A stretch of 64,000 nucleotides of DNA from a bacterium (GTDB lineage: Bacteria > Bdellovibrionota_C > UBA2361 > CALJRW01): assembly GCA_031385045.1 (NCBI GenBank), contig JANNBC010000024.1, positions 224,001 through 288,000 of the forward strand. Reading direction: 5' to 3'. The position numbers were made by a program, and so were the translations under genes. Of the stretch, positions 5,900 through 61,964 are shown one piece after another. The notes beneath the pieces are model-generated. The model was not told where the DNA came from. It saw only the letters and a list, made by a program, of their open reading frames with translations, and made no database searches. The number at the start of each line of letters is the position of its first letter. Position 1 is the stretch's first letter.

Positions 5900-5987
5900 T
5901 TAATAATCAATTTTGGCTAGTGCCTACCTAGATTGACTTTCTTTCAGGATAGACAGAGATTATTACTCTGCTTATTATCCCATATAG

Positions 5988-7616: not shown

Positions 7617-7739
7617 TAATTGACGCTAAATTGCACATGCGGTATCAATGCTTAACCTAAGAAGGTATTAATTGCTTATAAGAGTCAATCTTTACTTAAA
7701 GCAAATCTGTAAACTTATCGCTTGTACCCAGCAATTTTC

Positions 7740-9881: not shown

Positions 9882-10082
9882 GTATAAATAGTCTACAATT
9901 GACCTTAAATTCCCACTGGAACCCCTTACAATAAGATAAGATATTATAATTACTAGTGAAATTTACTAACCAGCACGAGACTTCAACAATCGAATCATGC
10001 TAAAATTCTTAAGGAAATTTAAAAACTTCCTGCAAATAGAGTAACAAACATTTTTAATGTTCCATAACCAGTTGTAGTCCTT

Positions 10083-37640: not shown

Positions 37641-38678
37641 TTACTCCTGAAAAGACCTAGCATATTTTAAGATCCGATTAATTTCCTTAATCTTTATCTT
37701 AAGCTTACGCTTTTGTTTGGCATTAGTTAGAACTAAAACTCTATTTACGAGTTTAGTTTTCTGTTTTTTAAGCTTGATCAGCTCTTCCGTATCCCAAGAC
37801 TCTAATCCACAAGCGGATAAAGATGAATTACAATCATAACGCTCACAACCATTAGGAATTTTAATAATTCTAAACTCGGCCAATGATGTCACAGCAATTA
37901 GCACATCTTCCCCGTAGCTACATCCAGATTGTGCACCACGCGACGTTGTACAACGACCATTACTAGGTCCCACATCAGTCAATGTTTCTCCATTAACAAC
38001 CAATGAAGTTGTTGGATTTGTTAAAACCACCAATCTTCCATTGCTATCAGAAACTGGCTTCCATAAGAAGCGTGATAGATCACTATAAGGACTAGCAAGG
38101 CAAACTCCTGGATCTTCTTCTACTTCTTCCTCAATTGGTTCTTCCTCAATTGGATCATCAAGCCCTAAGCTTGCGCCACAAATACTAAATAAAGTTTCAA
38201 TTGAATCAATAAATTCTGCTGTTAACTTACTTTCTGTTAGTAACTTAATTTCTGGCGTCTCCGGGCCAGAACTAAAACTAATAATTGCCTTAGCCGTTAA
38301 AGCTAAATTAACTAAATCCCTAACTTTAGTTGGCCGAATATCTGGGCAGGCTGTTTTGATATATCCTTCAGCAATAGATTCTGGAAGACCACCATAACAA
38401 AATCCCGCAATTGCCATTATCGGATTAAAAGAGTCACTTGTTACATTACCAAGTTTAGCGCTAAGCTCATTATAAGTAAGCAATAACCCTTCAATCTGCA
38501 CACGATTATCTCGCTGATGAAGGGCCACTTGAATCGCCTCTCGATTATCTGCAACCATCAGGATATCTGAAAAATTTGATTGTGGAATTGATTTGCAAAA
38601 ATTCGTAATATCTTGAGCAAATGCTGGAGTTGAAGCTAGTAAAACTAAGAGTAAACCTGTTAGAAATTTCATATGCAA
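37641..38678 (-). CDS. Secreted Cys-rich hypothetical protein
   Basis: Signal peptide (AFA-Q), acidic linker, FLWKPVSDSNGRLVVL...SNGR domain and a basic C-terminal helix. Confidence 0.7.
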   Translation of the reverse strand: MHMKFLTGLLLVLLASTPAFAQDITNFCKSIPQSNFSDILMVADNREAIQVALHQRDNRVQIEGLLLTYNELSAKLGNVTSDSFNPIMAIAGFCYGGLPESIAEGYIKTACPDIRPTKVRDLVNLALTAKAIISFSSGPETPEIKLLTESKLTAEFIDSIETLFSICGASLGLDDPIEEEPIEEEVEEDPGVCLASPYSDLSRFLWKPVSDSNGRLVVLTNPTTSLVVNGETLTDVGPSNGRCTTSRGAQSGCSYGEDVLIAVTSLAEFRIIKIPNGCERYDCNSSLSACGLESWDTEELIKLKKQKTKLVNRVLVLTNAKQKRKLKIKIKEINRILKYARSFQE

Positions 38679-38767
38679 ATTAGTAGTAAAATAACCTTAG
38701 CTACTAATCAGCTCAGAACTTGTTTTTGCTTCTTAAAAAACCAAATAATATCTAGTTATTTTAAGTT

Positions 38768-39364
38768 CTAACTATCTGATTTTACTATTAATTCACCAGA
38801 GGAGTTAAAATACTTTTGAAAATTCGTCACACCCTCAATTAAATATTGCCCATCTTTAGTTCCAATAATCCAGGCAGGAGACTTACTCACCTGATACTCA
38901 GCTGGAGGCTCAGCAGAAAAAAATAATCCACCGCCCCGACCATCAACAAGTGCCGTCACTTTGTTCATTGCTGGGGAACTAAAATCCTTGCCCACCGCAT
39001 ATATTGGGCCTAAGTCATAATCATGCTCAATGGCAAATTCTAGAAAACTATTTATTTCAGTGAAAAAATGATCTTGATCATTGGCATTAATAATCATACC
39101 TAACCAACTAACCTGATAGCGACCTCCTGGTGGTGGAGTTATCGTTGGTGTTTGCGGACTAGCCTGACCTTCGGCCGTGCTTGGCACTTCTTGTTGATTA
39201 GGATTCGGTGCTACTATTGGATTAGTTTCCTGCTCTACTTTACGAGGATTAAATACATTCATATCATAATCTTTACCAAAGAACCCCTCTTCTTCAGCAA
39301 AAACTACAGAACTAGCGCCTAGAACAAGCAAAAGTAGCGCTAATTTAATAGAAAATAGTTTCAT
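38768..39364 (-). CDS. Exported protein, F-type TrbC-like (tentative)
   Basis: Signal peptide from ATG 39364. C-terminal EPPAEYQVSKSPAWII...LIEG resembles the TrbC 'DP..F..y.I..VPa.V...i.G' pattern. Confidence 0.5.
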   Translation of the reverse strand: MKLFSIKLALLLLVLGASSVVFAEEEGFFGKDYDMNVFNPRKVEQETNPIVAPNPNQQEVPSTAEGQASPQTPTITPPPGGRYQVSWLGMIINANDQDHFFTEINSFLEFAIEHDYDLGPIYAVGKDFSSPAMNKVTALVDGRGGGLFFSAEPPAEYQVSKSPAWIIGTKDGQYLIEGVTNFQKYFNSSGELIVKSDS

Positions 39365-40901
39365 TATTAACTGGTAAATAACAAACAGGGCAAGCTTGAA
39401 CAAAGCGATAGTGAGCAGAAACAAAACGCTCTCCATCAACATTCACATTAGCATCTTTGTATTGATCGCCGGTAATCTTCGGAAGATAATATTCACCTTC
39501 ATTGATACATCCCTTATTACTACCACGAGCGACGTTACGACTACGGTCAAAAGGCTTATTACGATTTAAATCTAAAAACTGTAAGCGATCACGTTTATGT
39601 TCTCCTTGATCTTGAAATTGAACATCATGAAACTTACCTATTTTCTCCCCCTGCTTTGGGTTCAACATACCAAGCTTCTCTCCCAAAAGATAGGCTAATT
39701 TAATTGAGACATAGTCACGCTTTGTTGCTGCTTGTGTTGAATATAAAGTTTCTTTGTCAAAATTAAAGGGCACAGAAAATAACCTTCCATAAAAAGCAAT
39801 ATTACCTGGGGCACATTTATATGTTCCACCAGCACTATTACTGCCACCTTGAGAAATCAACGGATTTAATTTATCTTTAAAAATAGTATCGAGACTTCCC
39901 AGATCTTGTTTCTGCTGACGACAATTATCCATTTGATCCTCTGCTTGTAGCACCTTCTGTAAATCAGAATCAGCATAAGCATACTCTGCAAATCTCATTG
40001 TTAAGAGCGCCTCAGGGAATTCACTAAACCAAATTGGAACAGCATTCTTCACAGGCACCCAAGAGTTAACTGCTCCTTGATGAGTCCATATGTCTTCAAA
40101 GTAATCTTCTCGATTGGTTTTATTGCGATCAAATCCAGTTGGATAGACGTGCATTTCCATAAAGCGACCATTATTAGAAATTCGGTGTCGGAGTGTTGCA
40201 TCATCCATGGAGACCTCCTTACCATCAATCTTAACTTTAAGTTTCTTAAATTCTTTTATGGAATCAATAACACCTTTGTCACGAACTATTTCTTTTTGTA
40301 AAGTGTCTTTAATCTTCTGAACATCTTGATCTTCCATTTTAAAATCTTTATCGAATCCAAACTTGTTACCGACTGCCTTCAAACGATCGATCTCACCTTT
40401 TGCTGGTTCGGTTGAGCCTCCCTGCGCCTTAACCAACATTCCTAAATGTGAAAATTGTTCCGCTTTGGCTTTCAGATTTTTGACAATTTCCGCAGTCATA
40501 TATTCAGTGTCATAGGGAGTCTGAGTTGTTTCTGTTAATTGAAAAGGAACATAATAACTATAAAGCGGAATAGAATCGTCTAGTAAGCCCGCATAGGTAT
40601 CATAATCACGGCAGAGGTAAAAATTATATCCAAGGTTAACTTGCAGATTACGTGCTAATTTACAACCTCCTCCAGTAACTCTTTTTCTACCTAAACAACT
40701 GTTTGGATCATCAGTGTAATTTTCCAACATTCGATTTGCGGCGGCTGTAAAGGATGCTTCCACTTCAGAATTACCAACCTTACTAATTAATCGATCCGTT
40801 TTACTGAGTGGTGTGCCGGGAGTAATTTCAACCTTTCCCGTCTCTGCCTGAAGCATAAAAGGAATAAAAAGCGCTATAACTAATAATCTAAAAACCTTCA
40901 T
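39345..40901 (-). CDS. Exported protein, TraU-like (tentative)
   Basis: Signal peptide; YYVPFQLTETTQTPY, FMEMHVYP, WFSEFPE and C-terminal GERFVSAHYRFVQAC occur in TraU order; Cys-rich. Confidence 0.55.
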   Translation of the reverse strand: MKVFRLLVIALFIPFMLQAETGKVEITPGTPLSKTDRLISKVGNSEVEASFTAAANRMLENYTDDPNSCLGRKRVTGGGCKLARNLQVNLGYNFYLCRDYDTYAGLLDDSIPLYSYYVPFQLTETTQTPYDTEYMTAEIVKNLKAKAEQFSHLGMLVKAQGGSTEPAKGEIDRLKAVGNKFGFDKDFKMEDQDVQKIKDTLQKEIVRDKGVIDSIKEFKKLKVKIDGKEVSMDDATLRHRISNNGRFMEMHVYPTGFDRNKTNREDYFEDIWTHQGAVNSWVPVKNAVPIWFSEFPEALLTMRFAEYAYADSDLQKVLQAEDQMDNCRQQKQDLGSLDTIFKDKLNPLISQGGSNSAGGTYKCAPGNIAFYGRLFSVPFNFDKETLYSTQAATKRDYVSIKLAYLLGEKLGMLNPKQGEKIGKFHDVQFQDQGEHKRDRLQFLDLNRNKPFDRSRNVARGSNKGCINEGEYYLPKITGDQYKDANVNVDGERFVSAHYRFVQACPVCYLPVNNETIFY

Positions 40902-43017
40902 CTTGTTTGTCCTTTAATACATCTGAAATCTTTCGATCATCAGATAAAATATCTAGAATCTCATTAAGCTTTTGTGGTACGGCTAAATCGGAGTTACTAC
41001 CCTTTCCAAAAGATTGAATTAATTTTTTAATCCGTTGCTCTTTCATTTTTGGAGTTGCACCACTATTAATAAATTCATAGGCCTCCCTTAGAGGACTCTT
41101 CTCGCCTTCCGCGTTAAATGCTTCTGGGATCCTCATCTTAAATTGCGCTTGAATCAGTTTCCATCGTTCGTAGGCTGACTGGTTATTTTTAAAGAGCGGG
41201 GTAATAATTTTTACTACATCTTGATCGAAAAATTTCGCAGTGCTTGGGTATAACTGAATCCTACCGATACCTTTAATTCCTTTTAAAATTGAATCTATGT
41301 TAAGTGATCCAGCTTCAAGGGACTCTTCTACTAATTGATAAGCATGACGGTCCGTCTTAAAGAGCGCTAAATTAATCTCTAGATACCCTTTAAAGAAGAG
41401 ATCAGTCAGAGGCGCTAATTCAGTTGCTAACTCTTTAAAAAGCTTTACTTTCACTGGCTCGTTAGTAGTTAAGACAACTCTCCGCTTGTCATCAAAATCT
41501 TCTTGGGTAAGAATATTATACTTTGAGCTAGCTAAAATTGTTCGAATCAAATCAGAACTTATAAATTCTAAATAAACCTTAAAAGTTGGCTTGGGATTAT
41601 GCTTTTCAACAAATCCAACCACTGTATCAACAATAAATGGTAATCTAGATAGTTGATCTTCAGGAAGATTAACTGGAAATAAGAAAAGACCATTACCCTC
41701 AGTATTAGCTAAGGAATAAAGAATTAAGCGATCGGCCTCGATTTTTTTTAAAACATCCAAGAAAGTTTGCTCCAGTTTTTCTCCTAAATATTCCAACTTA
41801 TAATTGAAAATAGTTTCGACAGAGGTGCCCGGTACAAATAATTTTTGTTCAGCAAAACTATTTTCAACATTTGCCAAAGACGATGAAAAACGAAGTAATT
41901 TATCCCCATCTATATCAATTGGAAGATCTATGAAAGTTTGATACATATGTGGAGGGGTTTCACCTTTTTCTAGGAATTTCTTTTCCGCAGCTTGATTATA
42001 CTGATGAACTTTCATGATATCTTGAAGATTAATCTCATGACTGTATGTATCCTGAGGTGACTTATCTAAAAGCATCCCAGAAGCTTTCCAGGCCTCTAAG
42101 TTTAATAACTTACCAAGCTCACTTTGATATAGACTTAGAGTCTGTAAATCAAGCAACATTAAACCATCTACTTTAAGCGAAGTGAGACACTTAACAAGAT
42201 CATTAGATTTATTTAAATCTTCTATTATTTTTACTAAATTTGACTCTAAGAAACGGAGGGAAGACAGCATAATTGCAATATCACCCTCTCCCTTAAGTGA
42301 AGCCTGATTAAAATCTTCGGCATATTTTTTAAAGAATTGATTTAGCCGCGCACTCTCTCCTAGGGTAATTTTATATCCCGAATAATTTAAATCTAGCTTC
42401 AGGGTGTCTTCGTCAACAAAACTTACAAAATCTTTATTAATTCTTAATGATTGAAGATACTCTTGCACCTTTTGTTTTAAAGCTGGAACTTTAAAATATA
42501 TTTTTCCGTTACCAGCAACTTCATTCCAGAAAAAATTAGGAAGCTCCCCTGCAGAAAATTTATCAAATAAAATCTGAGTAAATTGAGGGTAATAAGCCTG
42601 AATTATTTCGGTATTAAAACTAACATACCCATGCCCCTTTAACCCAGAAATAGCTTCTCTTAAAGAATTAATTTGGATCAGGCGACTAAACAAAGCCGAG
42701 GCTTGCGGTTGTAAAAATGCCACAGGTACAACAATATTTTTTGCAAGTGGTGTAAAATCTTTATAAATAAAAGTTTCTCGATTGCTAACTTCGGTAGCGA
42801 TAGTCTTAGATTTTTCTTCTGCTACTTGCTCTGCATTTGAATTGGGATCAAGTAAGACTTGCTCTTTTGGATCGAGCTTATCGGAAACTATTTCGCTTAC
42901 CTCTTCTTTTATAACAGGCTGAGTGGGTGCTGGTTTTTTACTATTCCCAGAAGTTACCCAGATGATATAAATAATTACGATACCACTTAATATTGCTAGT
43001 TTTTTCAATGAACTCAT
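40888..43017 (-). CDS. Membrane-anchored hypothetical protein
   Basis: One N-terminal TM helix, 709 aa; its end overlaps the TraU-like start by 14 bp. Confidence 0.7.
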   Translation of the reverse strand: MSSLKKLAILSGIVIIYIIWVTSGNSKKPAPTQPVIKEEVSEIVSDKLDPKEQVLLDPNSNAEQVAEEKSKTIATEVSNRETFIYKDFTPLAKNIVVPVAFLQPQASALFSRLIQINSLREAISGLKGHGYVSFNTEIIQAYYPQFTQILFDKFSAGELPNFFWNEVAGNGKIYFKVPALKQKVQEYLQSLRINKDFVSFVDEDTLKLDLNYSGYKITLGESARLNQFFKKYAEDFNQASLKGEGDIAIMLSSLRFLESNLVKIIEDLNKSNDLVKCLTSLKVDGLMLLDLQTLSLYQSELGKLLNLEAWKASGMLLDKSPQDTYSHEINLQDIMKVHQYNQAAEKKFLEKGETPPHMYQTFIDLPIDIDGDKLLRFSSSLANVENSFAEQKLFVPGTSVETIFNYKLEYLGEKLEQTFLDVLKKIEADRLILYSLANTEGNGLFLFPVNLPEDQLSRLPFIVDTVVGFVEKHNPKPTFKVYLEFISSDLIRTILASSKYNILTQEDFDDKRRVVLTTNEPVKVKLFKELATELAPLTDLFFKGYLEINLALFKTDRHAYQLVEESLEAGSLNIDSILKGIKGIGRIQLYPSTAKFFDQDVVKIITPLFKNNQSAYERWKLIQAQFKMRIPEAFNAEGEKSPLREAYEFINSGATPKMKEQRIKKLIQSFGKGSNSDLAVPQKLNEILDILSDDRKISDVLKDKQDEGF

Positions 43018-43239
43018 GGTTTTAATTTAACTCAGTTCAAAAACTTAAAACAGTTACTAAGTTCGACTATCTCCTAAAAAATTTCCCTCTCTCTCCTCAC
43101 TCATAAATTAAAGATTTAAGATTTTAAACATTTAGATAACAGACCAAACAAATCGATGGTTAATCACCTATAACTTTGATCCACTAAATCTCCACATTTA
43201 AAATCCCAAGCTTACTCAGCTTGTCTCTGTAAATTAATC

Positions 43240-44637
43240 TTATGAACCTGGGGTCCATCCTCTCTGTAACGGTCCCCAATACCTAGAAGCTCCCAGCGGA
43301 TCCCCGTTAGAATTAGTCCCCGAGATTACTCCATCTTGCTTAACCAAGTTAGAAGTAATTGATAGCGCTGCGTTGGCATTAGTATAAGGGTTAGCTAACT
43401 GGTCATGGGTGAAAGCATCACTTTGTAATCCATAATTAGTTGCATCTGCTGTTGATAATTGAAATAAGCCTCGAGAACCTGTCCCGAACTTACCAACATC
43501 ACCAACATCACCGATATTATATGAAGATTCCTTACCAGCTAACTCCGTAAAGTATCTGGCCCAAGACTCTGAGCTCCCATCAATACCATACTTAGCTCCA
43601 TCGGCCGGAACATATCCATTTAAATCTGAGTTCTTAACTTGCTCATTCATATAAGCGAACAAGTCATCTTTACTTACATTACCAGAGGAAGAGACCGGCA
43701 TAGATCCGTCACCTCCGGTATACTGACTATAATCAGTATTAATTCCACCAGTTCCCAATCCAGTTGTTCCCGTGGTTCCAGTTCCCAATCCAGTTGTTCC
43801 AGTACCCGGTTGGCCTGGTTGCATTGCCTGATTCTGCTGATTCATCGCCGACAGAGTATTGACTACTTGCCCCGCCATAATCAAATTAGAATTTCCAGTT
43901 AATGCACCAAGAGTTGTTAAGATAGTTCCTAACCAATTACCATTGGAGTTATTACTTCCTCCAAACATTCCAAAAATCCCACTTCCGGCACCACCATTCA
44001 TGCCTAACAATCCAGCGATTCCTGCACCAGTATTACCAGCACCAACATTATAGTTACCAAACATTTGCCCTGCAATATTACCAACATTACCCATATTGCC
44101 AAAGTTGTTCATTCCAGGGATTGATTGGTTGTATGCAGTTGGAGCAAGATAAGGAGCAATACAATCCCGATAATCAGAATTATATGGATTACATTGAGGA
44201 TAACGATCTTGCGGATTATTCATTGCTGCGGAAATCCCACCAGCATTCATTGATGTAAACATCTGAGCAATATTACTTACATTTCCACCTAAGAACATCG
44301 AAAGACTTCCTAACAACATTCCTAAAATTGGATTATCCCCCATAACATCAGTAATTCCGACATTACTAATAGTTTGTGTAAGCCCAGCTGCAGCATTCAT
44401 GTTACCGCCTAGCTGGCTAATTGACTGAGCTTGCTGAATACTATTGGGATTTAAATCTAAACGATCATGATCTTGGTTTTGCTGTTGCAAAGCTCGCTGA
44501 CAAATTTTTTGTCCTAAGGGATGATTGGCACAGGGGTCGCCATTCTGGGCGAAGACTACTCCAGAGGGCTGAAGCAATGAGGCTAGTAGACAAACTACTA
44601 CGAAACTATTAGTGGAGAATATTAATCTTTTGTTCAT
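43240..44637 (-). CDS. Secreted protein with Gly/Asn/Met-rich region and C-terminal lytic transglycosylase (SLT-like) domain
   Basis: Signal peptide; WARYFTELAGKESSYN (catalytic ES), SRGLFQLS, LANPYTN and YWGPL. Confidence 0.75.
   Translation of the reverse strand: MNKRLIFSTNSFVVVCLLASLLQPSGVVFAQNGDPCANHPLGQKICQRALQQQNQDHDRLDLNPNSIQQAQSISQLGGNMNAAAGLTQTISNVGITDVMGDNPILGMLLGSLSMFLGGNVSNIAQMFTSMNAGGISAAMNNPQDRYPQCNPYNSDYRDCIAPYLAPTAYNQSIPGMNNFGNMGNVGNIAGQMFGNYNVGAGNTGAGIAGLLGMNGGAGSGIFGMFGGSNNSNGNWLGTILTTLGALTGNSNLIMAGQVVNTLSAMNQQNQAMQPGQPGTGTTGLGTGTTGTTGLGTGGINTDYSQYTGGDGSMPVSSSGNVSKDDLFAYMNEQVKNSDLNGYVPADGAKYGIDGSSESWARYFTELAGKESSYNIGDVGDVGKFGTGSRGLFQLSTADATNYGLQSDAFTHDQLANPYTNANAALSITSNLVKQDGVISGTNSNGDPLGASRYWGPLQRGWTPGS
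43748..43800. repeat. Intragenic 23-bp direct repeat with a 30-bp period, encoding GTTGLGTG
   Basis: CCAGTTCCCAATCCAGTTGTTCC at 43748-43770 and 43778-43800. Confidence 0.85.
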
Positions 44638-44717
44638 TTGAAAACCCTAACTAAAAAAACCCTTCAATAAATGTTATGAGCAAAATGCTCAATCTGATGC
44701 ACCACTTAAGGGATTTT

Positions 44718-45506
44718 TCATTTAAAATATGGATGAAGTATACCGGATGAATGGTAGTCCTCATCATAGTTCTTTAAAGCATTAATCCCCCGATCAACAA
44801 AGAATGCTTCAGTTGTCGTGCGAAATCTCATTGGCAGGCATTCCACCCCTAAACCCTTAGCAACACGATGTATTTCAGTATTTTTATCTGGATAGTAGAC
44901 TAAAAGATCAACTTTTTTTCCTAAAAATTCACTTACATCAACCTCGTTTGGTACTTTTTCAGGAGAAATAAATAGTAAATCTTGCACTGGAGTATTTCCA
45001 GATTGGTTATTCGTTTTGGAAATATTTTTTCTAATTGTACTAGAGCTAGTACATTTCGGAAGCGGAATTGCTTGCTCCATTTGGCTCACTTGAGCTTTTA
45101 ATTGAGGAAGGTATTCCTCTCTAACATACTGCCGAACAGCATCCTGATTTAAGGTAAATTTTTTATAAGAATTCTTTATTACAAGCGGATCTGGGTAATT
45201 AATCCCAGAATTGCCTTTTACATGACCAAAGATTTTAAGTTCAGAGATTTCTTGCTCCCACGGATTTTTAGGATGCTTACCAAGCATTCTCATAATATGA
45301 CGACTATCAGGCTTAACACCATATCTTTCAGCCGATTCGTTTAATTCTTCTTGGGTAAACCGATACTCACTAATTTGTTTTTGTAGCTGTGCTTGCTGTT
45401 CATAGGTCAGGTTCTTAAGAATTTCCCTGGGATCTCCCTGCGCAAATAAAGAATTCACTGTTAGGAAGATAGTAAGTAGCACTTGGACAATTCGTAATCT
45501 CATCAT
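44718..45506 (-). CDS. Exported protein, TraW-like (tentative)
   Basis: Signal peptide; FGHVKGNSGINYPDP resembles the TraW N-terminal 'G..G.ty.IaEpD', and AKGLGVECLPMR resembles the C-terminal 'fgI.aVP'. Confidence 0.45.
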   Translation of the reverse strand: MMRLRIVQVLLTIFLTVNSLFAQGDPREILKNLTYEQQAQLQKQISEYRFTQEELNESAERYGVKPDSRHIMRMLGKHPKNPWEQEISELKIFGHVKGNSGINYPDPLVIKNSYKKFTLNQDAVRQYVREEYLPQLKAQVSQMEQAIPLPKCTSSSTIRKNISKTNNQSGNTPVQDLLFISPEKVPNEVDVSEFLGKKVDLLVYYPDKNTEIHRVAKGLGVECLPMRFRTTTEAFFVDRGINALKNYDEDYHSSGILHPYFK

Positions 45507-53857: not shown

Positions 53858-54409
53858 CTAATCGAGCTTAAGTAATTGACTACGAACTCGCTGACTTAGC
53901 GGATACTCAGAAAGCCAGATGCCTAAATAATACTGGGCAAATTTGGAATTATTAATTGTTGGAAAAGTCTGATTGGGGTTGCTCAGTGTTAATCCCTGAT
54001 TGGTGATATAGGTTAAAAAATACTGATCATCTCGATCAACATCACTGTAATAATTGCTAACCTGATCTATTTCTTTCTGGTACTCAGTAAATATAAAATT
54101 GGGGTTCTTTTTTAAAGTATCAACTGCACCATCAACAATTCTTTTTTTATCAATTTTACGGTGATATTTAAAATGAAGAAATTTAGATATTTGTGGATCG
54201 AGTACATTTCCGGTTAAATTAGGCTGATCAACATAGAGCCCAATAGAATAAATATCCATAAACAAATAAGTAAAATCTGATTTACCTACTAAATAAAACT
54301 GGACACCAGAGCGTTCAATAGTTTTAGGATAACAACTAACTTCGGAACAAAGCTCTTCAGCCTGAGTGTTAATTGCCATTAATAAAAATAAAAAAAATAA
54401 TCGAATCAT
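53858..54409 (-). CDS. Chalcone isomerase-like exported protein
   Basis: Signal peptide, YLFMDIYSIGLY and YLGIWL..YP; context fits cfa operons. Confidence 0.8.
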   Translation of the reverse strand: MIRLFFLFLLMAINTQAEELCSEVSCYPKTIERSGVQFYLVGKSDFTYLFMDIYSIGLYVDQPNLTGNVLDPQISKFLHFKYHRKIDKKRIVDGAVDTLKKNPNFIFTEYQKEIDQVSNYYSDVDRDDQYFLTYITNQGLTLSNPNQTFPTINNSKFAQYYLGIWLSEYPLSQRVRSQLLKLD

Positions 54410-55137
54410 TAATTTGTCTTTAAACTGCCTAAGCCTCCATCAACAGCAATTATTTGCCCAGTAATCCATGTTGCTCGATCGGAGATTAAAAAATCTACTA
54501 AATTTACTAAATCATCGGTTGTTCCAAGACGTTTTAAGGCGTGCATTTTTTCAGAAACCTTAAGGCTATTTTCATTATTAAAAATAGATTCAGTCATTGG
54601 CGTGCGCGTAAGCCCCGGAGCAATAGCATTAAAGCGAATGTTTTTTCCTGCATATGTTGCCGAGGCGGAAAGTACTAAGCCATTAACAGCGCCCTTAGCA
54701 GCAGAGATTGCTTCGTGATTTGGGAGTCCAATTTGTGAGGCCGCAGAAGTAAATAAAATCACACTTCCACCATTTGGAGCTAAAAATCTTCCAGCAGCAC
54801 GAACAGTCGCAAAGGCAGTTGTTATATTCTTACTAATTACTTGCTCATATTCCAGTGACGACACTAAATGTGCCGGTTTAAGCAGAACAGATCCACAACA
54901 ATTAACCACTGCATCAATCCTACCAAAAACATCAGTAGCATTTTGAAAAACACGATTAACCTGCTCAAAATCACTACAATCTGCGACAGCATAATTTGCT
55001 AGCAGCTTATTGGCGAGACTAATTAGCTCCGCCTCATGTCGAGCTACTAAAAAACATTTCCAACCAGTAGCTGATAATCTTTGGCTTAAATCACTTCCAA
55101 CTCCGCCAGTAGCACCAAGGATAATTACATTTTTCAT
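54409..55137 (-). CDS. Short-chain dehydrogenase/reductase
   Basis: GATGGVG, NCCGS, IxxxK in place of YxxxK, NAIAPG and TGQIIAVDGG. Confidence 0.9.
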   Translation of the reverse strand: MKNVIILGATGGVGSDLSQRLSATGWKCFLVARHEAELISLANKLLANYAVADCSDFEQVNRVFQNATDVFGRIDAVVNCCGSVLLKPAHLVSSLEYEQVISKNITTAFATVRAAGRFLAPNGGSVILFTSAASQIGLPNHEAISAAKGAVNGLVLSASATYAGKNIRFNAIAPGLTRTPMTESIFNNENSLKVSEKMHALKRLGTTDDLVNLVDFLISDRATWITGQIIAVDGGLGSLKTN

Positions 55138-55142
55138 TGGAG

Positions 55143-55595
55143 CTAATATTTATTAAGTTTTGTTTTAATCCATTTGATAATTATGGACAGCACTGGGATT
55201 CTTTCATAAATAAAATCTCCAACATCATAGTAATCACGTTGATATTTTACTAGTTGAGTTTGAGGATCAAAGACTAAATGAGAAATACCTGGAACACTAA
55301 AAAGCTTCCCATGATTAAGCTTAGGGGCCTGCAAATGCATTGTCCAAAAGGCAGAAATTTTTTGCCCCTCACAAATAAAATCAGTAAATTCAAATTTTAT
55401 CTCCTCGACTGGCTGATAAATATGACTATAGTATGCTTTAATTTTGGATCCCCCACTAAGATCTACTAGCGGATCAATAAAATGAGCCTCAGAATGATAA
55501 AAAGTATCTACTAAATTAATATTTGTGGCACTTAGATTTGCAAAAAAATACTTAATTTTTTCTATCAGTGGATTTTCAATTACGCCGTTAGACAT
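55143..55595 (-). CDS. SnoaL/NTF2-like protein
   Basis: FYHSEAHFIDP, W.M, G.SHL and QRDYYD...YERIPVL. Confidence 0.85.
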   Translation of the reverse strand: MSNGVIENPLIEKIKYFFANLSATNINLVDTFYHSEAHFIDPLVDLSGGSKIKAYYSHIYQPVEEIKFEFTDFICEGQKISAFWTMHLQAPKLNHGKLFSVPGISHLVFDPQTQLVKYQRDYYDVGDFIYERIPVLSIIIKWIKTKLNKY

Positions 55596-57663
55596 TTGCC
55601 GACCTTTGAGAAAAGTATTTTTGATTTAAAACCTGCCGATCTTCACTACAAAGAACTTGATTGTTCGGCCTAGTCAATGTCAGGTGTAAAACATTAAGAG
55701 TTCTAGTTGCAAATGCAGATTCACAATATGCCAGGTAATAGTTCCAAGCTCGAATAAAACGTTCATCAAAACCTAACTTAAAAACCTGATTTAAATTTCG
55801 ATTAAAGCGCTTACGCCATTCCGCCAAAGTTGGAGCATAATGGGGGCCAATATTAGTAATCTCCTCAATTTCGAGTTCTGAATTTTTACGCAAGGCAATT
55901 TGTAATGCTTCTAATGAAGGGAGTAAAGAGCCTGGAAAGATATGTTTTTGAATCCAATCACAACGATTTTTTAGACGTTCAAAATATTGATCGTGAATGG
56001 TTATTACTTGCAATGCAATTAATCCATTGGGCTTAAGTAACTTTTCACAGGTTCTAAAAAAACTTTGATAATTTTTATGACCAATAGCCTCAAGCATCTC
56101 GATTGAAACTATCTTATCAAATTGACCGGTAACCTCCCGATAGTCACAGAATTTAATTTCAACTAAATGCTCTAGCTTTGCTTCCTTCACTCGCTCCTTT
56201 GCCAAATTAAATTGCTCCTGTGAAATAGTGATACTTGTCACATGGCAACCAACTTGTTTCGCTAGAGTAATTGCGAAAGAGCCCCAGCCACTACCAATTT
56301 CTAAAACATGATCAGCCTTAGTAATCCTTGCTTTCCTAATTAAAGAATCAATCTTATTTGCTTGAGCCGCCTCTAGGATAGTGCATTCCGGACTATAAAG
56401 TGCAGAAGAATACATCATGCTAGAATCTAAGAAAGTTTTGAAGAGATCATTACTTAAATCATAATGAGCCGAAATATTCTTCTTGGCACCAGCTAAGGAA
56501 TTAAAACGAAAGAGATGTCTCAAAAATTCTACCTTATCAAAAAAATAGTTAATGATGCGGTTTCTCTTTTCAATTTTTTCTTTATTAGCAATAAAATAAT
56601 CAACTACAGCAGTTATATCTCCAGTTTCCCAAAGTTTATCGGTATATGACTCCCCTAAGCCAATTGCACCATCGCGAACTAGTCTCCAAAAAAACTCATA
56701 ATGCTGAACTTGAATTTCCGCTTGAGGCAGTTGTTGTGCATCACCAAAAAATAAAATGCGATTATCTGGCAAAATAATTTTTAGAAACCCACGATCGAAT
56801 CCCCGAAACAACTTGATAATCTTATTTTGTGCCAAACTGTGTAAATAACTTGGAGGTCCAGTAAAAATAGTATGAGCACTGACTGGCTTAGGCTTTCTAA
56901 ATACTGGTAATTTTTTAATATAATACATCTTGGCCGCCTGATAGACTATCCTTGGATAAGTTAGACTTGCCGTCAGGGGAAACTTAACAAATATTTTTAA
57001 TAAATTTATAGTATTAAACTCGGCTCCCTCTCCCCAAACTCTAGAATAAAAATCTACCTTAACTTGCCTATCCTTCTCTCGCAGAACATTAATCTTAATA
57101 TCTAGTTGTTCCTCTGGCTCTGTTAACCAAAAATCATACATACCATCCATTGGATAAAAGGGTGAAACATGAAAGGATTTGGGTACAGTATAATGTTTAG
57201 CATATTTAGACTTGTCATCTAAACTTAATTCTTGGTGTAATAAGTAGAGGTGGCGCTCCGAAAAAGTATTATTCACTTCGGAAACAACGTAGATCAGTTC
57301 ATCTACCTTATTGTAACAGTAATAAAAACTTACCGGATTAAAAACATAATTAAAGTACCTGGCACTTGTAATTAAAACGATGCGCTCAATCTGCTGATTT
57401 AAGTTATTTTTGGATAAGTAACTTAATACTTTTTCTTTAATTGTTAATCCAGAATTATCTAGATAATCTTGGTCGAAAATAGCGGCCACTCTTTTTTTAT
57501 TATATCCAAAAATCCAAGAATTAAAGCTAGGTAATTCATCTAAGTCTAGCGCATAGAAGTAGACAGGATAGGCGAAAGTATGATCAACGGGACCAGTGCG
57601 ACTGTGCATCACCCTACCAGCATAAATCTTTGATCGTGGCTTAGAAGCTAATAAACTAGCCAT
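55588..57663 (-). CDS. DUF1365 and cyclopropane-fatty-acyl-phospholipid synthase-type methyltransferase fusion
   Basis: N-terminal HSR..P..H.F.Y, FNPVSFYY, EVNNTF and KSFHVSPF; C-terminal NISAHYDLSND, LEIGSGWG, SIEMLEA and WNYYLAYCE. Confidence 0.9.
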   Translation of the reverse strand: MASLLASKPRSKIYAGRVMHSRTGPVDHTFAYPVYFYALDLDELPSFNSWIFGYNKKRVAAIFDQDYLDNSGLTIKEKVLSYLSKNNLNQQIERIVLITSARYFNYVFNPVSFYYCYNKVDELIYVVSEVNNTFSERHLYLLHQELSLDDKSKYAKHYTVPKSFHVSPFYPMDGMYDFWLTEPEEQLDIKINVLREKDRQVKVDFYSRVWGEGAEFNTINLLKIFVKFPLTASLTYPRIVYQAAKMYYIKKLPVFRKPKPVSAHTIFTGPPSYLHSLAQNKIIKLFRGFDRGFLKIILPDNRILFFGDAQQLPQAEIQVQHYEFFWRLVRDGAIGLGESYTDKLWETGDITAVVDYFIANKEKIEKRNRIINYFFDKVEFLRHLFRFNSLAGAKKNISAHYDLSNDLFKTFLDSSMMYSSALYSPECTILEAAQANKIDSLIRKARITKADHVLEIGSGWGSFAITLAKQVGCHVTSITISQEQFNLAKERVKEAKLEHLVEIKFCDYREVTGQFDKIVSIEMLEAIGHKNYQSFFRTCEKLLKPNGLIALQVITIHDQYFERLKNRCDWIQKHIFPGSLLPSLEALQIALRKNSELEIEEITNIGPHYAPTLAEWRKRFNRNLNQVFKLGFDERFIRAWNYYLAYCESAFATRTLNVLHLTLTRPNNQVLCSEDRQVLNQKYFSQRSANV

Positions 57664-58910
57664 TAGATAAGTGCCTTAACTTTAAAATGACTAGCTAAGT
57701 TATTGGCTGAGACAACTGCATCTTCATGGAACCCATAGCCCAAATAGCTTCCACAATAAAAAACATTGGAGCGACCATTAAGAGATTTAACTTGTCCCTG
57801 TGTAATTAAGTTTTCACTAGTAAATAAAGGATGATAATAATCAAATTCTTGAATAATTTTATCTGGTGCAATAGTATGGTTAGGACTTAGAGTTACTAAA
57901 TATCGCTCTTTAGTTGTTAAGCCCTGCAAGCGATTCATATCATAAGTTACTGAAAGGTTTTGCCCATCTTTAGTTTCTTCAGCATTATAATTCCAAGAGG
58001 CCCAAGCACGGGAGTTTTTTGGCAAGACAGAAATATCCGTATGGAGCACAGTCCGGTTAAAGTTATATTGCCACTTTGAAAAACAGTATGACTCTTCTTT
58101 GGAAGGATTGCTAAAAATCGGGAGGACTTGATCAGCGTGAACTGCAAAAATTAAATAATCAAATTTCTGTTCGCTGTCTTCAGTTTTAACAGTGACGCCA
58201 ATATCTCCTCTAGTAACATTTTCTATCCGAGCATTTAAAATAATCTCCCCGGAGAATGTTTCTTTAAATTTTTTGACGTACTCTTGACTACCACCAACAA
58301 CAGTTTGCCAGCGCGGTCGATCTTTTAGTGAAAGTAGGCCGTGATTCTTAAAGAAGTTCAAAAAAGTGAATGCTGGAAACTGCAACATGTCCTCGCTTGG
58401 TGTTGACCATATGGAGGCTCCAATTGGCAAAACATAATCATAAATTAATTCGTAACTATATTTTTTTGATTTTAAATACTCACCGAGTGTTAACCCTAAC
58501 AAGCCATTACCAATCAAATCTTGAGTGGAGTTTTTGCAAAAGGCTTTTAATTCTAGTAAAAATCGATAAAATTTAGGATTAAAGAGATTAAGCCGATCGG
58601 CAAAAAAACCATTTAAGCCCGTTCCAGCATAGGCTAATTTTCGCGATTTAGAATGAAATGAAAAGGACATATCTGAATAGCGAATGGGGACGTCCAAGGC
58701 ATTCAGAAATCTGGTAAATGTAGGGTAAGTCTGATCATTTAAAACAATAAAGCCTGTATCGACAGCTAGTCCAGGTTTAATTTCAATTGTATTAGTGTGA
58801 CCCCCCAGATAGGCATTAGCCTCAAAAATTGTAACATTATAATCCTTCTGTAGCAGGTAAGCTGAAACAATCCCTGCTACACCTCCTCCGATGATTGCAA
58901 CTTTTCTCAT
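57663..58910 (-). CDS. FAD-dependent oxidoreductase (amine oxidase family, UfaD-like)
   Basis: IGGGVAG, LGGHTNT, VDTGFIV, WASWNY and GFHED. Confidence 0.88.
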   Translation of the reverse strand: MRKVAIIGGGVAGIVSAYLLQKDYNVTIFEANAYLGGHTNTIEIKPGLAVDTGFIVLNDQTYPTFTRFLNALDVPIRYSDMSFSFHSKSRKLAYAGTGLNGFFADRLNLFNPKFYRFLLELKAFCKNSTQDLIGNGLLGLTLGEYLKSKKYSYELIYDYVLPIGASIWSTPSEDMLQFPAFTFLNFFKNHGLLSLKDRPRWQTVVGGSQEYVKKFKETFSGEIILNARIENVTRGDIGVTVKTEDSEQKFDYLIFAVHADQVLPIFSNPSKEESYCFSKWQYNFNRTVLHTDISVLPKNSRAWASWNYNAEETKDGQNLSVTYDMNRLQGLTTKERYLVTLSPNHTIAPDKIIQEFDYYHPLFTSENLITQGQVKSLNGRSNVFYCGSYLGYGFHEDAVVSANNLASHFKVKALI

Positions 58911-59929
58911 GTCTGCTTTGGTTTAAATAAATAATGGCTAACTAGCCACTCTTGACCATCACGATATCCAAACAATTCGGCGCAAGCCAAAAAGAAAATC
59001 AGCCAGCGACGATACCAAAGTTTAGCTGATTTTCTGCCATATGTCTGCTCTAAGATTGGCATTACTAAATGCTTATTCTGTTTAATATTATTCGCCCAGG
59101 CATTGGCAGTTTTTTGATAATTAGTCCCAGAGACATCCCATTGCTCTGTGATTTCTAAATCTTGATCATATTGATAAAATAACTTCTTACTTGGCATAGT
59201 TCCACCTGCAAAAAAATATTTAGCCATCCACTGATCTTCTCGATGCTCATCAAAAAAATAGGTTAATTTTCGATGACAAAAAATATGAACAAAAAGTAAG
59301 CCTTGCGGGTCAAGCCACTTAGCAATTTTCTTAAATAGCATTGAGTAATTACGCAGATGTTCAAACATTTCAACCGAGACAATTCGGTCAAAGGTCTCAC
59401 TAAGCTCTAAATCATTAATATCCTTGGTAATCACTTGTAAATTACTAAGCCCTCTAGCCTCAGCAGTAGCCAAAATAAATTCTCTTTGAATTCTGGAATT
59501 AGACACAGCAGTAACAAGAGAATCAGGAAACTGCTTGGCTAAATAAAGAGAAAGTGAACCCCAACCACATCCTAGTTCCAAAATTCTGTGTCCATTTTGG
59601 ATTTGGGCGCGGGTTGCAATTTCAGCCAAAGAATCCAACTCTGCCTCTGCCAAGGTCTGAACTCCAGGAAAAAAAGTTGACCCGCTGTACTTTAAATTTG
59701 GACCCAAAACATTGATGAAAAACTCATAGGGCAATTCATAGTGTTGCTGATTTGCTTCCTTACTAGCTAAAGATATTTGTCCAGACTGTAAATTTGCCAA
59801 ACTTTCGGCAATTTGATTCTGCTGTTGATTCTCCTTTGCAAGTCGTTTTTCCAATAAACTTCTAATCCCATAGCGAATAATGCTATCTGGTATAGGTAAA
59901 TTTTCAACAATTTCAGTGCTTAAGCTCAT
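58907..59929 (-). CDS. SAM-dependent methyltransferase (CFA synthase/coclaurine N-methyltransferase-like)
   Basis: ANQQHYE, LGPNLKYS, LELGCGWGS, SVEMFEH and EWLVSHY. Confidence 0.9.
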   Translation of the reverse strand: MSLSTEIVENLPIPDSIIRYGIRSLLEKRLAKENQQQNQIAESLANLQSGQISLASKEANQQHYELPYEFFINVLGPNLKYSGSTFFPGVQTLAEAELDSLAEIATRAQIQNGHRILELGCGWGSLSLYLAKQFPDSLVTAVSNSRIQREFILATAEARGLSNLQVITKDINDLELSETFDRIVSVEMFEHLRNYSMLFKKIAKWLDPQGLLFVHIFCHRKLTYFFDEHREDQWMAKYFFAGGTMPSKKLFYQYDQDLEITEQWDVSGTNYQKTANAWANNIKQNKHLVMPILEQTYGRKSAKLWYRRWLIFFLACAELFGYRDGQEWLVSHYLFKPKQT

Positions 59930-59947
59930 GATAAATCTTTATATAGA

Positions 59948-60706
59948 CTAAAACCATGGGAAAAACTTACTAGTTTTTTGTTGATAATCTCGATATAAAT
60001 CACCTTTACTAATCAAAGCCTGTTTTTCAGAAGGCGGGACACCTGTTACATAAAGTAATAAAATTAACATTAATATTGGAGATAAAAGTGAGACTAACTC
60101 TCCCGAGGTACCCAATGCAAATAATGGATAACTAAGCCAAATAATCCATTCAAAAAAATAATTTGGATGACGAGAATATTTCCAAAGACCTAAGTCACAT
60201 ACTGCTCCCTGACGGTTACCAAGTGTTCGAAACTTTGCAAGCTGTGAGTCGGCAAGACTAACTCCTTGATAGCCAATAAAAAAAATAGCCAGTCCTAAAT
60301 AATCTGAGTAAGCAAACTGACTTCGCTCGAAAATATAATGATATGGGATAGCTAAAATCCCAGCCATTACAACCTGGGCTAAAAATAAGAAATAAAAGTT
60401 TTGTTTACCCTTTGTACCCCATTTCTTTCGAAGATTCTGATAACGACGATCTTCCCCTACTTTTAAAATTCTACCAAATAAAATTAAATGTCCTAATCTT
60501 AATGCCCAAATAAAAATTAATACAAAAATTATTACATTTCGAGTCGATGCCGGATGTTGTAAAAAACCAAAGACACCCCAAGATAGAACTAACATCGTCC
60601 ATCCAAAGTCTGCTAAATCCCCCTTAGCTTTTTTTTGAGCAATAAAATACAAAATATTTAAAACTAGTACCTGAGCAGAGATTAAGATCATCAAAGAACT
60701 ATTCAT
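59948..60706 (-). CDS. DUF1295 (steroid 5-alpha-reductase-like) membrane protein
   Basis: WALRL, EDRRY, GLWKYSRHPNYFFEW and YQQKTS.F.P. ATG 60706 is preferred. Confidence 0.88.
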   Translation of the reverse strand: MNSSLMILISAQVLVLNILYFIAQKKAKGDLADFGWTMLVLSWGVFGFLQHPASTRNVIIFVLIFIWALRLGHLILFGRILKVGEDRRYQNLRKKWGTKGKQNFYFLFLAQVVMAGILAIPYHYIFERSQFAYSDYLGLAIFFIGYQGVSLADSQLAKFRTLGNRQGAVCDLGLWKYSRHPNYFFEWIIWLSYPLFALGTSGELVSLLSPILMLILLLYVTGVPPSEKQALISKGDLYRDYQQKTSKFFPWF

Positions 60707-61964
60707 TTTTGAATCCATAAGCAAAATAAATTGCCACTAAATAGCAAGTTGCTGGTATTCCAGCATAAAGAATAATTAATCCATTATTAACAATACTACT
60801 TTGAACTATCCCAGCTTGATACCCAATTAATTCTAAAATCGGAAAAGCGCAACCGGCAGCGATTGCTGCCGAAAGTTTTTTTGCTAAGGACCAATAACCA
60901 ATCATTTGAGCAGCAAGATTTTGCTGAGATTCCTTACTGCACTTTTCCGCAACATCTGCCTGAAGCGACGCTGGGACAATAATTGCACCACCAAGTCCAA
61001 AACTAGATAAAATAATAATTAGCAAATAATAATATTCGTCTCCCGAGCCTAAAAAAAGTACTGCCAAGAAAGACCCCGTCGATAAGCTTAAACTTTGCAA
61101 CCATGCTTTTAATTTACCAACTTTCTTAGTCCAGTAAATCCAAAAGGGCATAAAAATTAAGACTCCCAAGAAATACAAAAAAATAAACTGATTCCCTAAC
61201 TTACTAGCAAGAACATGATCAATATAAAAAAGAATCATTGCTCCCGATAAAGTAGATCCAAAACTTGTTAAAGCATATGTGATTAAAAGATTCTTAAATC
61301 CTGAATATTGCCATAAGCTTTTTAAGCTCTGACTTTTAACTCGTTCTTTATTTGATATTACGAACTTACTATCTGGTAAAAGATAGTAACAGATCAGGGC
61401 TCCTGTCAGCAAAATTATCGCATAAACCAAACCAGCCCAAAATAAATAACTGAAATCATCACTAGGTTTTAAATTTATTTTTTGAAAAAGTACTGGGAAT
61501 AAGGAAGCTATTACTGTTCCTAGTAGCAAAAATCCTTCACGTGTTCCTAGAATCTTAGTTCTTTGGTTCGTGTCTGAATCTAGACTTAGGCCCAATGTTT
61601 GATAGGGCACAGAGAAACAACTCCAAGAAATATAAAAGAAAATGGAAAAGAGCAGGAACCAAAGTAGTGGAGAAATTAACTGAGGAGGATTTGTAAGCGC
61701 GATAAAACTTACTCCTAAAGGAAGTGCAACAAGAACAATTAACTTTCTTTGAAAATCAGGAAAACGATCCACTAATCTGCCAATCAGAGGATCAAATATG
61801 GCATCAGCTATTCGAGTCAAAATAACAATAATACCAAACCAAAATGCGGACACTCCTAAGGTATCAACATAATATTTAGGAAGAAAAACATAATAGGAAA
61901 AGGCCACTGCCGAAAGTCCCAGTGCTGAGAAAGAGTAGAGCAATGACGTTTTTAAGATATTCAT
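60699..61964 (-). CDS. MFS transporter, GPH/MelB-like
   Basis: RIADAIFDPLIGRLVD and about 12 TM helices. Confidence 0.85.
   Translation of the reverse strand: MNILKTSLLYSFSALGLSAVAFSYYVFLPKYYVDTLGVSAFWFGIIVILTRIADAIFDPLIGRLVDRFPDFQRKLIVLVALPLGVSFIALTNPPQLISPLLWFLLFSIFFYISWSCFSVPYQTLGLSLDSDTNQRTKILGTREGFLLLGTVIASLFPVLFQKINLKPSDDFSYLFWAGLVYAIILLTGALICYYLLPDSKFVISNKERVKSQSLKSLWQYSGFKNLLITYALTSFGSTLSGAMILFYIDHVLASKLGNQFIFLYFLGVLIFMPFWIYWTKKVGKLKAWLQSLSLSTGSFLAVLFLGSGDEYYYLLIIILSSFGLGGAIIVPASLQADVAEKCSKESQQNLAAQMIGYWSLAKKLSAAIAAGCAFPILELIGYQAGIVQSSIVNNGLIILYAGIPATCYLVAIYFAYGFKNE

Follow-up and report, generated by a model that had tools for sequence, protein, structure and literature searches.

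Here, we analyzed a 64,000-nucleotide window (the whole stretch of contig JANNBC010000024.1 from position 224,001 to 288,000, or G000:C54:224001-288000 in our numbering, from a 2.83-Mb genome that is 95% complete) and found that three genes within a six-gene block on its minus strand (37641-45506) encode proteins resembling TraW, TraU, and TrbC, the accessory proteins of an F-type type IV secretion system (T4SS). The rest of this system lies at three further loci in the same genome, and an F-type T4SS is very probably fixed in the chromosome across the whole phylum. Our best explanation, to which we assign a probability of roughly 55%, is a domesticated, vertically inherited, phylum-wide F-type T4SS that lacks a relaxase and delivers proteins on contact. 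An earlier note, made from the letters of the window alone, had proposed that the genes may be a chromosomally fixed contact, secretion, or predation apparatus and not a conjugative element; the analysis below supports a fixed apparatus, with other tra genes scattered over the genome and inherited vertically.

The set comprised 124 genomes (identical at the class and phylum levels), 73 of which are at least 90% complete and are termed good genomes below. The group is probably the class UBA2361, which has been ranked among the most basal classes of Bdellovibrionota and was moved out in GTDB R226 (PMC13200544). TraC was detected in 121 of the 124 genomes and in all 73 good ones; where a second match occurred, a contig end or break had cut the gene in two. 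The coupling protein was found in 110 genomes (67 of the good ones) and TraG-like proteins in 109 (69 of the good ones). The TraC tree shared 17 of 23 splits with the RpoB tree (26 genomes; patristic r = 0.955), compared with at most 2 after the labels were shuffled, and the coupling protein tree shared 10 of 11 (14 genomes; r = 0.977). The tree set consisted of the 26 out of 30 genomes with both genes, from one order and with 12 from family f9; G055, G070, G059, and G064 were left out of the TraC/RpoB trees for a split or missing rpoB. Both trees thus follow RpoB, as expected under vertical inheritance. The spread over four separate loci, the presence of TraC in 121 of 124 genomes, and the lack of any relaxase found in G000 depart from an ICE (integrative and conjugative element) with a relaxase and a patchy distribution.

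The core locus (G000:C54:163410-174915) lies on the same contig as the window, ~90 kb away, in the order orf113-traL-E-K-B-V-lipoprotein-traC-lipoprotein-bPH-SH3-M23-traX-pilin. Family matches comprised TraC_F_IV (E = 9.6e-14, above the cut-off), TrbI/VirB10 for TraB (1.8e-14; 54.5 bits, above the cut-off), TraK_C (1.9e-6; 28.4 against a cut-off of 28.5), TraV (0.0016; 19.8 against 21), TraX (3.9e-31), and a VirB2-type pilin (0.0058), with TraB, TraK, and TraV in canonical order. The VirB4 class, assigned by model scores, is TraC-F type: TIGR02746 (TraC-F-type) was the best of nine models on TraC (2.8e-52, below its equivalog cut-off), and the G-type model gave 3.6e-12. The nearest plasmid TraC proteins among the matches listed were 22–25% identical. 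The pilin-like gene scored with VirB2/TrbC pilins (0.0058 and 0.044), TraL was recognized from position and size only, and TraE had a match (E = 0.028) in G016 only. This core order recurred in 49 loci, many of which stop at contig edges, with E in 42, K in 43, B in 46, V in 44, L in 35, SH3 in 41, M23 in 34, bPH_2 in 27, the pilin in 26, and traX in 1. The M23 peptidase, coiled-coil SH3, and bPH_2 genes (L008:4679-6890) are conserved within the core operon and are candidate cell-wall remodeling parts.

The VirD4 coupling protein (G000:C46:14785-17163; T4SS-DNA_transf, 7.6e-38) stands alone among polysaccharide genes, is 55–70% identical across the phylum, and scored best on a CD1115-family VirD4 model (1.1e-54), not on TraD_Ftype (1.2e-13). 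The earlier note had recognized no VirB4 or coupling protein in the window; both are present at other loci of the genome. The C-terminus of the coupling protein carries a conserved domain of 107 amino acids (aa; residues 686–792) with no Pfam match, possibly a substrate adaptor; the same domain occurs in several genomes in stand-alone frames of 114–134 aa and in frames of ~380 aa.

The remaining locus, on contig C5 of G000, contains traF, a split gene in the traH position (the H-slot), and a 1129-aa traG, adjoining gcvT-H-P. The TraF-like profile matched TraF (probability 94, E = 1.2e-7) and a thioredoxin domain is present, while TraG_N was matched by 14 of 20 TraG-like proteins (3 above the cut-off), the G000 protein itself not being one of them. 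The H-slot gene between F and G encodes 520–620 aa; in the two genomes of this genus, G000 and G001, it is split into open reading frames (ORFs) of 219 and 316 aa (L142:8828-10440 and L249:8502-10106), both of which have a signal-like N-terminus. Three f9 genomes gave weak TraH matches that proved to be another family (homologues of G000 C8:63676-64887). TraN had no match in G000, and the traN slot is empty in G022, G047, G030, and G032; weak local matches to TraN and TraT were rejected by eye as a vWA-type and an OmpA-type protein, respectively. A TonB-like gene (L142:4274-5386) faces traG in G000, G001, G002, G022, G030, G046, G047, and G048.

In six relatives (G018, G022, G047, G030, G032, and G046), W-U-C-F-H-G stand in line on one contig, which is the order of plasmid F without traN, and in four of the six they directly follow gcvP. 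Sixteen regions were fetched for traG, several of them chosen for U on the same contig, so that the six-genome figure is no frequency; the W gene of G030 is cut by a contig end. Given that relatives keep W-U-C-F-H-G in line by gcvP, W-U-C have moved in this genus from gcv-F-H-G to the hisG/bcp site, gaining insertions there. Each of four genomes from other orders (G101, G112, G096, and G117) has five tandem, diverged traG paralogues. G048 carries two tandem H-G pairs and three U-like genes, and G046 has an Ig-domain protein in the traN slot.

Of the three Tra homologies that the earlier note had drawn by eye, those to TraU and TrbC gained moderate support and that to TraW weaker support, mostly from position and fold. 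P0003 (39345-40901; 518 aa) is a cysteine-rich, periplasmic protein with relatives of 450–700 aa. After one round of adding locus proteins, the profile of this family reached two proteins in G113 and G114 (E = 1.5e-8 and 2.1e-9, before their inclusion), which match Pfam TraU (1.2e-5 and 1.8e-5; slightly above the cut-off in the genome search) and are both followed by a C-like gene. In profile-profile comparisons, TraU ranked first among 19 small references (0.014, against 0.43 for the runner-up), with 0.0067 over 109 columns and, against 53 TraU sequences, an E-value of 4.3e-4 over 116 columns (next reference, 0.47). A 7-row TraU-like profile gave 0.47 against the single F TraU, one U-like member matched TIGR03756 weakly (0.014), and tblastn of the G113 protein against plasmids returned no match. 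The transitive link and the profile-profile scores make TraU homology of P0003 moderately well supported. Its AlphaFold model had a mean predicted local distance difference test score (pLDDT) of 72 and a predicted template modeling score (pTM) of 0.77. In fold searches with this model, Foldseek had no match at an E-value of 0.001, and the best VIA match (Z = 5.1) was a helical hairpin. An unclear fold search is to be expected, since no solved TraU, TraW, or TrbC was found by sequence in the PDB.

P0002 (38768-39364, likely start 39364, ~198 aa; the longest frame extends to 39442 and encodes 224 aa) is a periplasmic protein whose gene immediately follows the TraU-like gene. In the ESM Atlas, a tool with no measured error rates for parts of proteins, its three best clusters were TrbC_Ftype (0.90, 0.88, and 0.87; 191 shared features), and the best 10 of 10 matches were one family. 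Profile-profile scores against TrbC were weak (0.06, best of 19; 0.086, a tie with TraH). Homology of P0002 to F-type TrbC is therefore moderately well supported by the Atlas features and by position. P0006 (44718-45506; 262 aa), also periplasmic, scored E = 0.076 against TraW (second of 19, behind TrbI) and 0.11 with deep profiles (best of 6), with no usable match in the ESM Atlas. In its AlphaFold model (pLDDT 82), the N-terminal half is loosely placed and a C-terminal domain (residues 169–254) is thioredoxin-like, and nearly all 50 rows of the fold search were thioredoxin folds (Z ≤ 4.8). This agrees with the description of TraW as a flexible N-terminus followed by a folded C-terminal domain (PMC12999216) and with the assignment of TraW, TraF, TrbC, and TraU to one homology group (PMC4027160). 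P0006 is tentatively assigned as TraW-like, mostly on position and fold, and is the weakest of the three assignments. Much of the weight falls on gene order: among 30 loci (one per genome, with ~1.5 kb on either side), W-U-C order with W directly upstream of U was observed in 19, G042 has U-W, and 8 others show part only.

The block itself was largely as the earlier note had described it, with six co-oriented ORFs on the minus strand. The other three encode P0005 (43240-44637; 465 aa), a secreted Gly/Asn-rich protein with a C-terminal SLT lytic transglycosylase domain; P0004 (40888-43017; 709 aa), a membrane-anchored orphan; and P0001 (37641-38672, likely start 38672, 343 aa; longest frame to 38678, 345 aa), an exported cysteine-rich protein. 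The overlap at 40888-40901 is exact, that at 39345-39364 holds with the P0002 start at 39364, and a crude hydropathy scan placed an N-terminal hydrophobic stretch in 6 of 6 products, in keeping with export or membrane anchoring. The flanks are glyQS-hisG-MFS on one side and bcp-hisH-murJ on the other. A scan of 50 ORFs of the window turned up no family of integrases, relaxases, VirB4, or coupling proteins; the window has no tRNA, and no att-type direct repeat flanks the block among the 20 direct-repeat families listed. The GC content of the block (0.35–0.39) is like that in the remainder of the window, and the GC content at third codon positions (GC3) of its genes is host-like. Scans for promoters and terminators gave a signal no higher than in shuffled sequence.

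All six ORFs are intact and syntenic in G001, at 57–76% identity. Between G000 and G001, nonsynonymous divergence (dN) is 0.16–0.35 and synonymous divergence (dS) is 1.8–2.4, near saturation (five of the six genes; dS of the TrbC-like gene is saturated and not computable), and the six ORFs are genuine genes under purifying selection. Compared with a dN of 0.05–0.06 for glyQS and hisG in the same pair of genomes, these genes are selected but fast.

What did not survive from the earlier note is the six-gene block as a single conserved module: the conserved unit is W-U-C only, and neither the transglycosylase nor either of the novel exported genes was seen outside this genus. Specifically, homologues of P0005, P0004, and P0001 among all fetched loci were confined to G001, and two genes are inserted between W and U in both G000 and G001. 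Given this distribution, the three were inserted later and do not belong to the core. When the six proteins were scanned directly against Pfam and NCBIfam, the only match was SLT (P0005; E = 2.4e-5, 24.3 bits, cut-off 21.3), in which, by eye, the ES motif with the catalytic Glu and the GLFQL motif, both of which we take to have their usual roles in the domain, are retained. A search for P0005 in five other genomes, run without a positive control, found no homologue. Since P0005 has a signal-like N-terminus, the enzyme would most simply open the peptidoglycan of its own cell during assembly, and its position inside the operon suggests a VirB1-like role. The sole homologue of P0004 among 7997 candidates scored was the G001 protein (57% identity), and P0004 has no Pfam, NCBIfam, or PDB match; its likeness by eye to a degenerate PgaB was unsupported (one motif aligns, E = 0.53). 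P0001 is 75% identical in G001, has no family match (Pfam, NCBIfam) and no homologue at the further fetched loci, and lies outside the conserved system.

How such a system might work can be outlined from plasmid F, in which TraC (VirB4) and TraL, TraE, and TraG build the pilus through an outer-membrane core of TraB, TraK, and TraV, and periplasmic TraW-TrbC, TraU, TraF, and TraH extend it. The ancestor of the phylum would have taken a complete F-type T4SS from a conjugative element and fixed it in the chromosome, with the W-, U-, and C-like proteins as its pilus-assembly accessory subunits. Because the coupling ATPase, with its extra conserved C-terminal domain, is kept and no relaxase remains, proteins are the most likely substrates; the coupling protein would recruit them, and on contact they would pass into prey, competitor, or host cells. 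Fast-evolving TraU, TraW, TrbC, and TraH and the multiplied TraG would tune target recognition. A T4SS that lacks a relaxase and retains a coupling protein has been described as the protein-secreting kind (PMC4027160), and the combination found here, a T4SS with a coupling protein and no relaxase, is the same.

The case for a lost relaxase is as follows. PF03432, PF08751, PF07514, and PF03389 (MOBP, MOBF, MOBH, and MOBQ) were negative in G000, a search that did not extend to MOBV, MOBC, MOBT, and MOBB; each of the four families gave matches in control genomes, and local MOBF and MOBH profiles had no match in G000. MOBF was detected in 6 of the 124 genomes and MOBH in none. No relaxase adjoins any of 30 coupling protein genes, and the five MOBF loci viewed consist of small accessory genes with no tra genes in their 1.5-kb flanks. 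Two integrase-bearing islands lie at apparent tRNA-Leu genes (by eye) in G000 (C55:398-8939 and C46:19949-35040): the former has homologues of the small genes lying in front of the MOBF relaxases of G001 and G002, with no relaxase found, and the latter has primase-like and restriction-modification-like genes.

Several results weigh against this reading. First, none of the six window proteins matches any Tra family directly (Pfam, NCBIfam), Pfam TraU matches none of 32 further U-like proteins, and TraW and TrbC models match none of the W- and C-like members scanned. The 27-row P0003-family profile failed to reach the G113 and G114 proteins (E = 3.8 and 4.3), which as whole proteins score 25.3 and 24.7 bits, below the Pfam TraU cut-off of 26.5, and sequence comparison gave the H-slot protein no support as TraH. 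Second, U-like proteins were found in only 34 of the 124 genomes and in none of the 36 from f9, reflecting either a sensitivity limit or loss, and two strongly supported TraC/RpoB conflicts were found (G002, and G051 with a partial RpoB). Third, in G046 (a single contig, 82% complete) W-U-C-F-H-G are present without any match to TraC or to the coupling protein, from incomplete assembly or real loss. Fourth, Pfam failed on this genome's own TraU and TraG, and a divergent relaxase could therefore be overlooked as well. Finally, no effector was identified (no search was aimed at effectors), and we know of no cultured member of the group.

The main competing explanation, which we consider unlikely but by no means negligible, is that the same fixed machine moves DNA, by chromosomal conjugation or DNA release through an overly divergent relaxase or by DNA uptake. 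To our knowledge, F-type systems of known role all move DNA; the coupling protein is kept here, and family searches overlooked other divergent parts of this very genome. DNA-moving systems such as the gonococcal genetic island (GGI) and ComB have also been named (PMC4027160). However, relaxase domains, like the ATPases, are conserved parts, and the ATPases were easily detected here while four relaxase families were empty. The rarity of MOBF and the absence of MOBH matches across the 124 genomes, and the spread of the genes over four loci with housekeeping neighbors, also speak against it.

Somewhat less probable is a purely adhesive role, in which a retractile pilus or contact structure binds prey, hosts, or surfaces and transfers no cargo. 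The window genes would be pilus-extension factors (PMC4027160, PMC12999216), a pilin is present in 26 of 49 core loci, and TraG, the mating-pair stabilizer, is multiplied. Set against this, the coupling protein is as conserved and vertical as TraC. A coupling protein is dispensable for pilus assembly. We judge it very improbable that the channel is retained by the host to help small mobilizable elements move: MOBF relaxases do occur on such elements in six genomes, including both other genomes of this family, yet the other 118 keep the machine with no MOBF match, and a second coupling protein belonging to the element lies near at least one of them (G095:C41). Least probable of all, and by now largely discounted, is that these genes have no homology to Tra proteins or are what is left of an ICE, decaying or inserted recently; this fits the lack of direct family matches and the weak profile scores, but runs counter to three independent, agreeing lines (the TraU bridge, the Atlas TrbC match, and the canonical order by traF-H-G) as well as to intact frames, purifying selection, host-like GC3, and the lack of integrase, att site, and tRNA.

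The protein-delivering, relaxase-less F-type T4SS therefore remains our preferred explanation, and a part for the fixed apparatus in predation is one that we infer. A bolder version, which we offer tentatively and think rather doubtful as a whole, would make it the weapon of attack for a whole uncultured phylum, a retractile-pilus protein injector for predation or parasitism. It would be a chimera of an F-type channel, a VirB2-like pilin, and a VirD4 that has a different origin and whose C-terminal substrate-adaptor domain is new; TraU, which is hypervariable, and as many as five TraG copies in tandem would set the prey range, and the machine might form a T4SS class of its own.

Elsewhere in the window, an operon at 53858-61964 encodes chalcone-isomerase-like, SDR, SnoaL, DUF1365-CMAS fusion, amine oxidase, CMAS, DUF1295, and MFS proteins and is a probable cyclopropane or unusual fatty acid cluster. 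Four large co-oriented ORFs (1705, 542, 719, and 646 aa) at 782-12023 have, as their only Pfam match, a weak sulfotransferase in the third.

The system offers a tangible way into the lifestyle of a group that is common but uncultured. Most of its accessory parts fall under the family cut-offs, and standard annotation therefore overlooks it. It also indicates which F-pilus accessory proteins survive once DNA transfer has apparently been dropped (W, U, C, F, and G, with N and the relaxase not found), and it is a source of natural, very divergent TraU, TraW, and TrbC variants, proteins for which solved structures were not found. Domesticated, clade-defining T4SSs are known, the Dot/Icm system of Legionella being of the I type. 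The rvh system of Rickettsiales is of the P type (PMC9352585). An F-type T4SS as a near-universal, single-copy, vertical phylum trait was not found in the literature searched, which included few subscription papers and main texts only, so that supplements of surveys of metagenome-assembled genomes could list the genes. The sole paper with both "Bdellovibrionota" and "VirB4," in its available part, concerns Patescibacteria; neither T4SS nor UBA2361 appears in the main text of a pangenome paper on Bdellovibrionota (PMC11656739), and a predation review has T4SS only in its references (PMC12428579).

Compared with known systems, this one is closest to MPF_F (plasmid F/IncC/SXT), with which it shares the L-E-K-B-V-C core, the W-U-C-F-(H)-G accessory genes, and a VirB4 of TraC-F type. 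It differs from MPF_F in being chromosomal, spread over four loci, and vertical across a phylum; in having no relaxase and no TraN found; in its longer TraU (450–700 vs ~330 aa) and its TraC, only 22–25% identical to plasmid TraC; and in a coupling protein nearest to the CD1115 VirD4 model and a pilin that scores with the VirB2/TrbC family. The GGI of Neisseria gonorrhoeae has its own relaxase and is patchy among strains. It is, like the system described here, a chromosomal F-like T4SS with a use other than plasmid transfer (PMC4027160), but it is a compact island that secretes single-stranded DNA. MPF_G systems (ICEHin1056/PFGI-1 type) likewise have TraW, TraU, TrbC, TraF, and TraH homologues with VirB2-like pilins (PMC4027160), and the weak TIGR03756 match of one U-like member is a further resemblance, whereas F-type models give TraC and TraB here much better scores than G-type ones do. 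In Vampirovibrio chlorellavorus, a conjugation-derived T4SS has also been proposed as a predation tool, although it is T-type, lies partly on plasmids with relaxases, and belongs to one species (PMC4451040). Finally, rvh of Rickettsiales offers the nearest evolutionary parallel, a single gain by the ancestor of a large clade followed by vertical descent with duplicated components and with a proposed ancestral role in killing bacteria (PMC9352585); rvh is P-type (VirB), and the system described here is F-type with a multiplied TraG.

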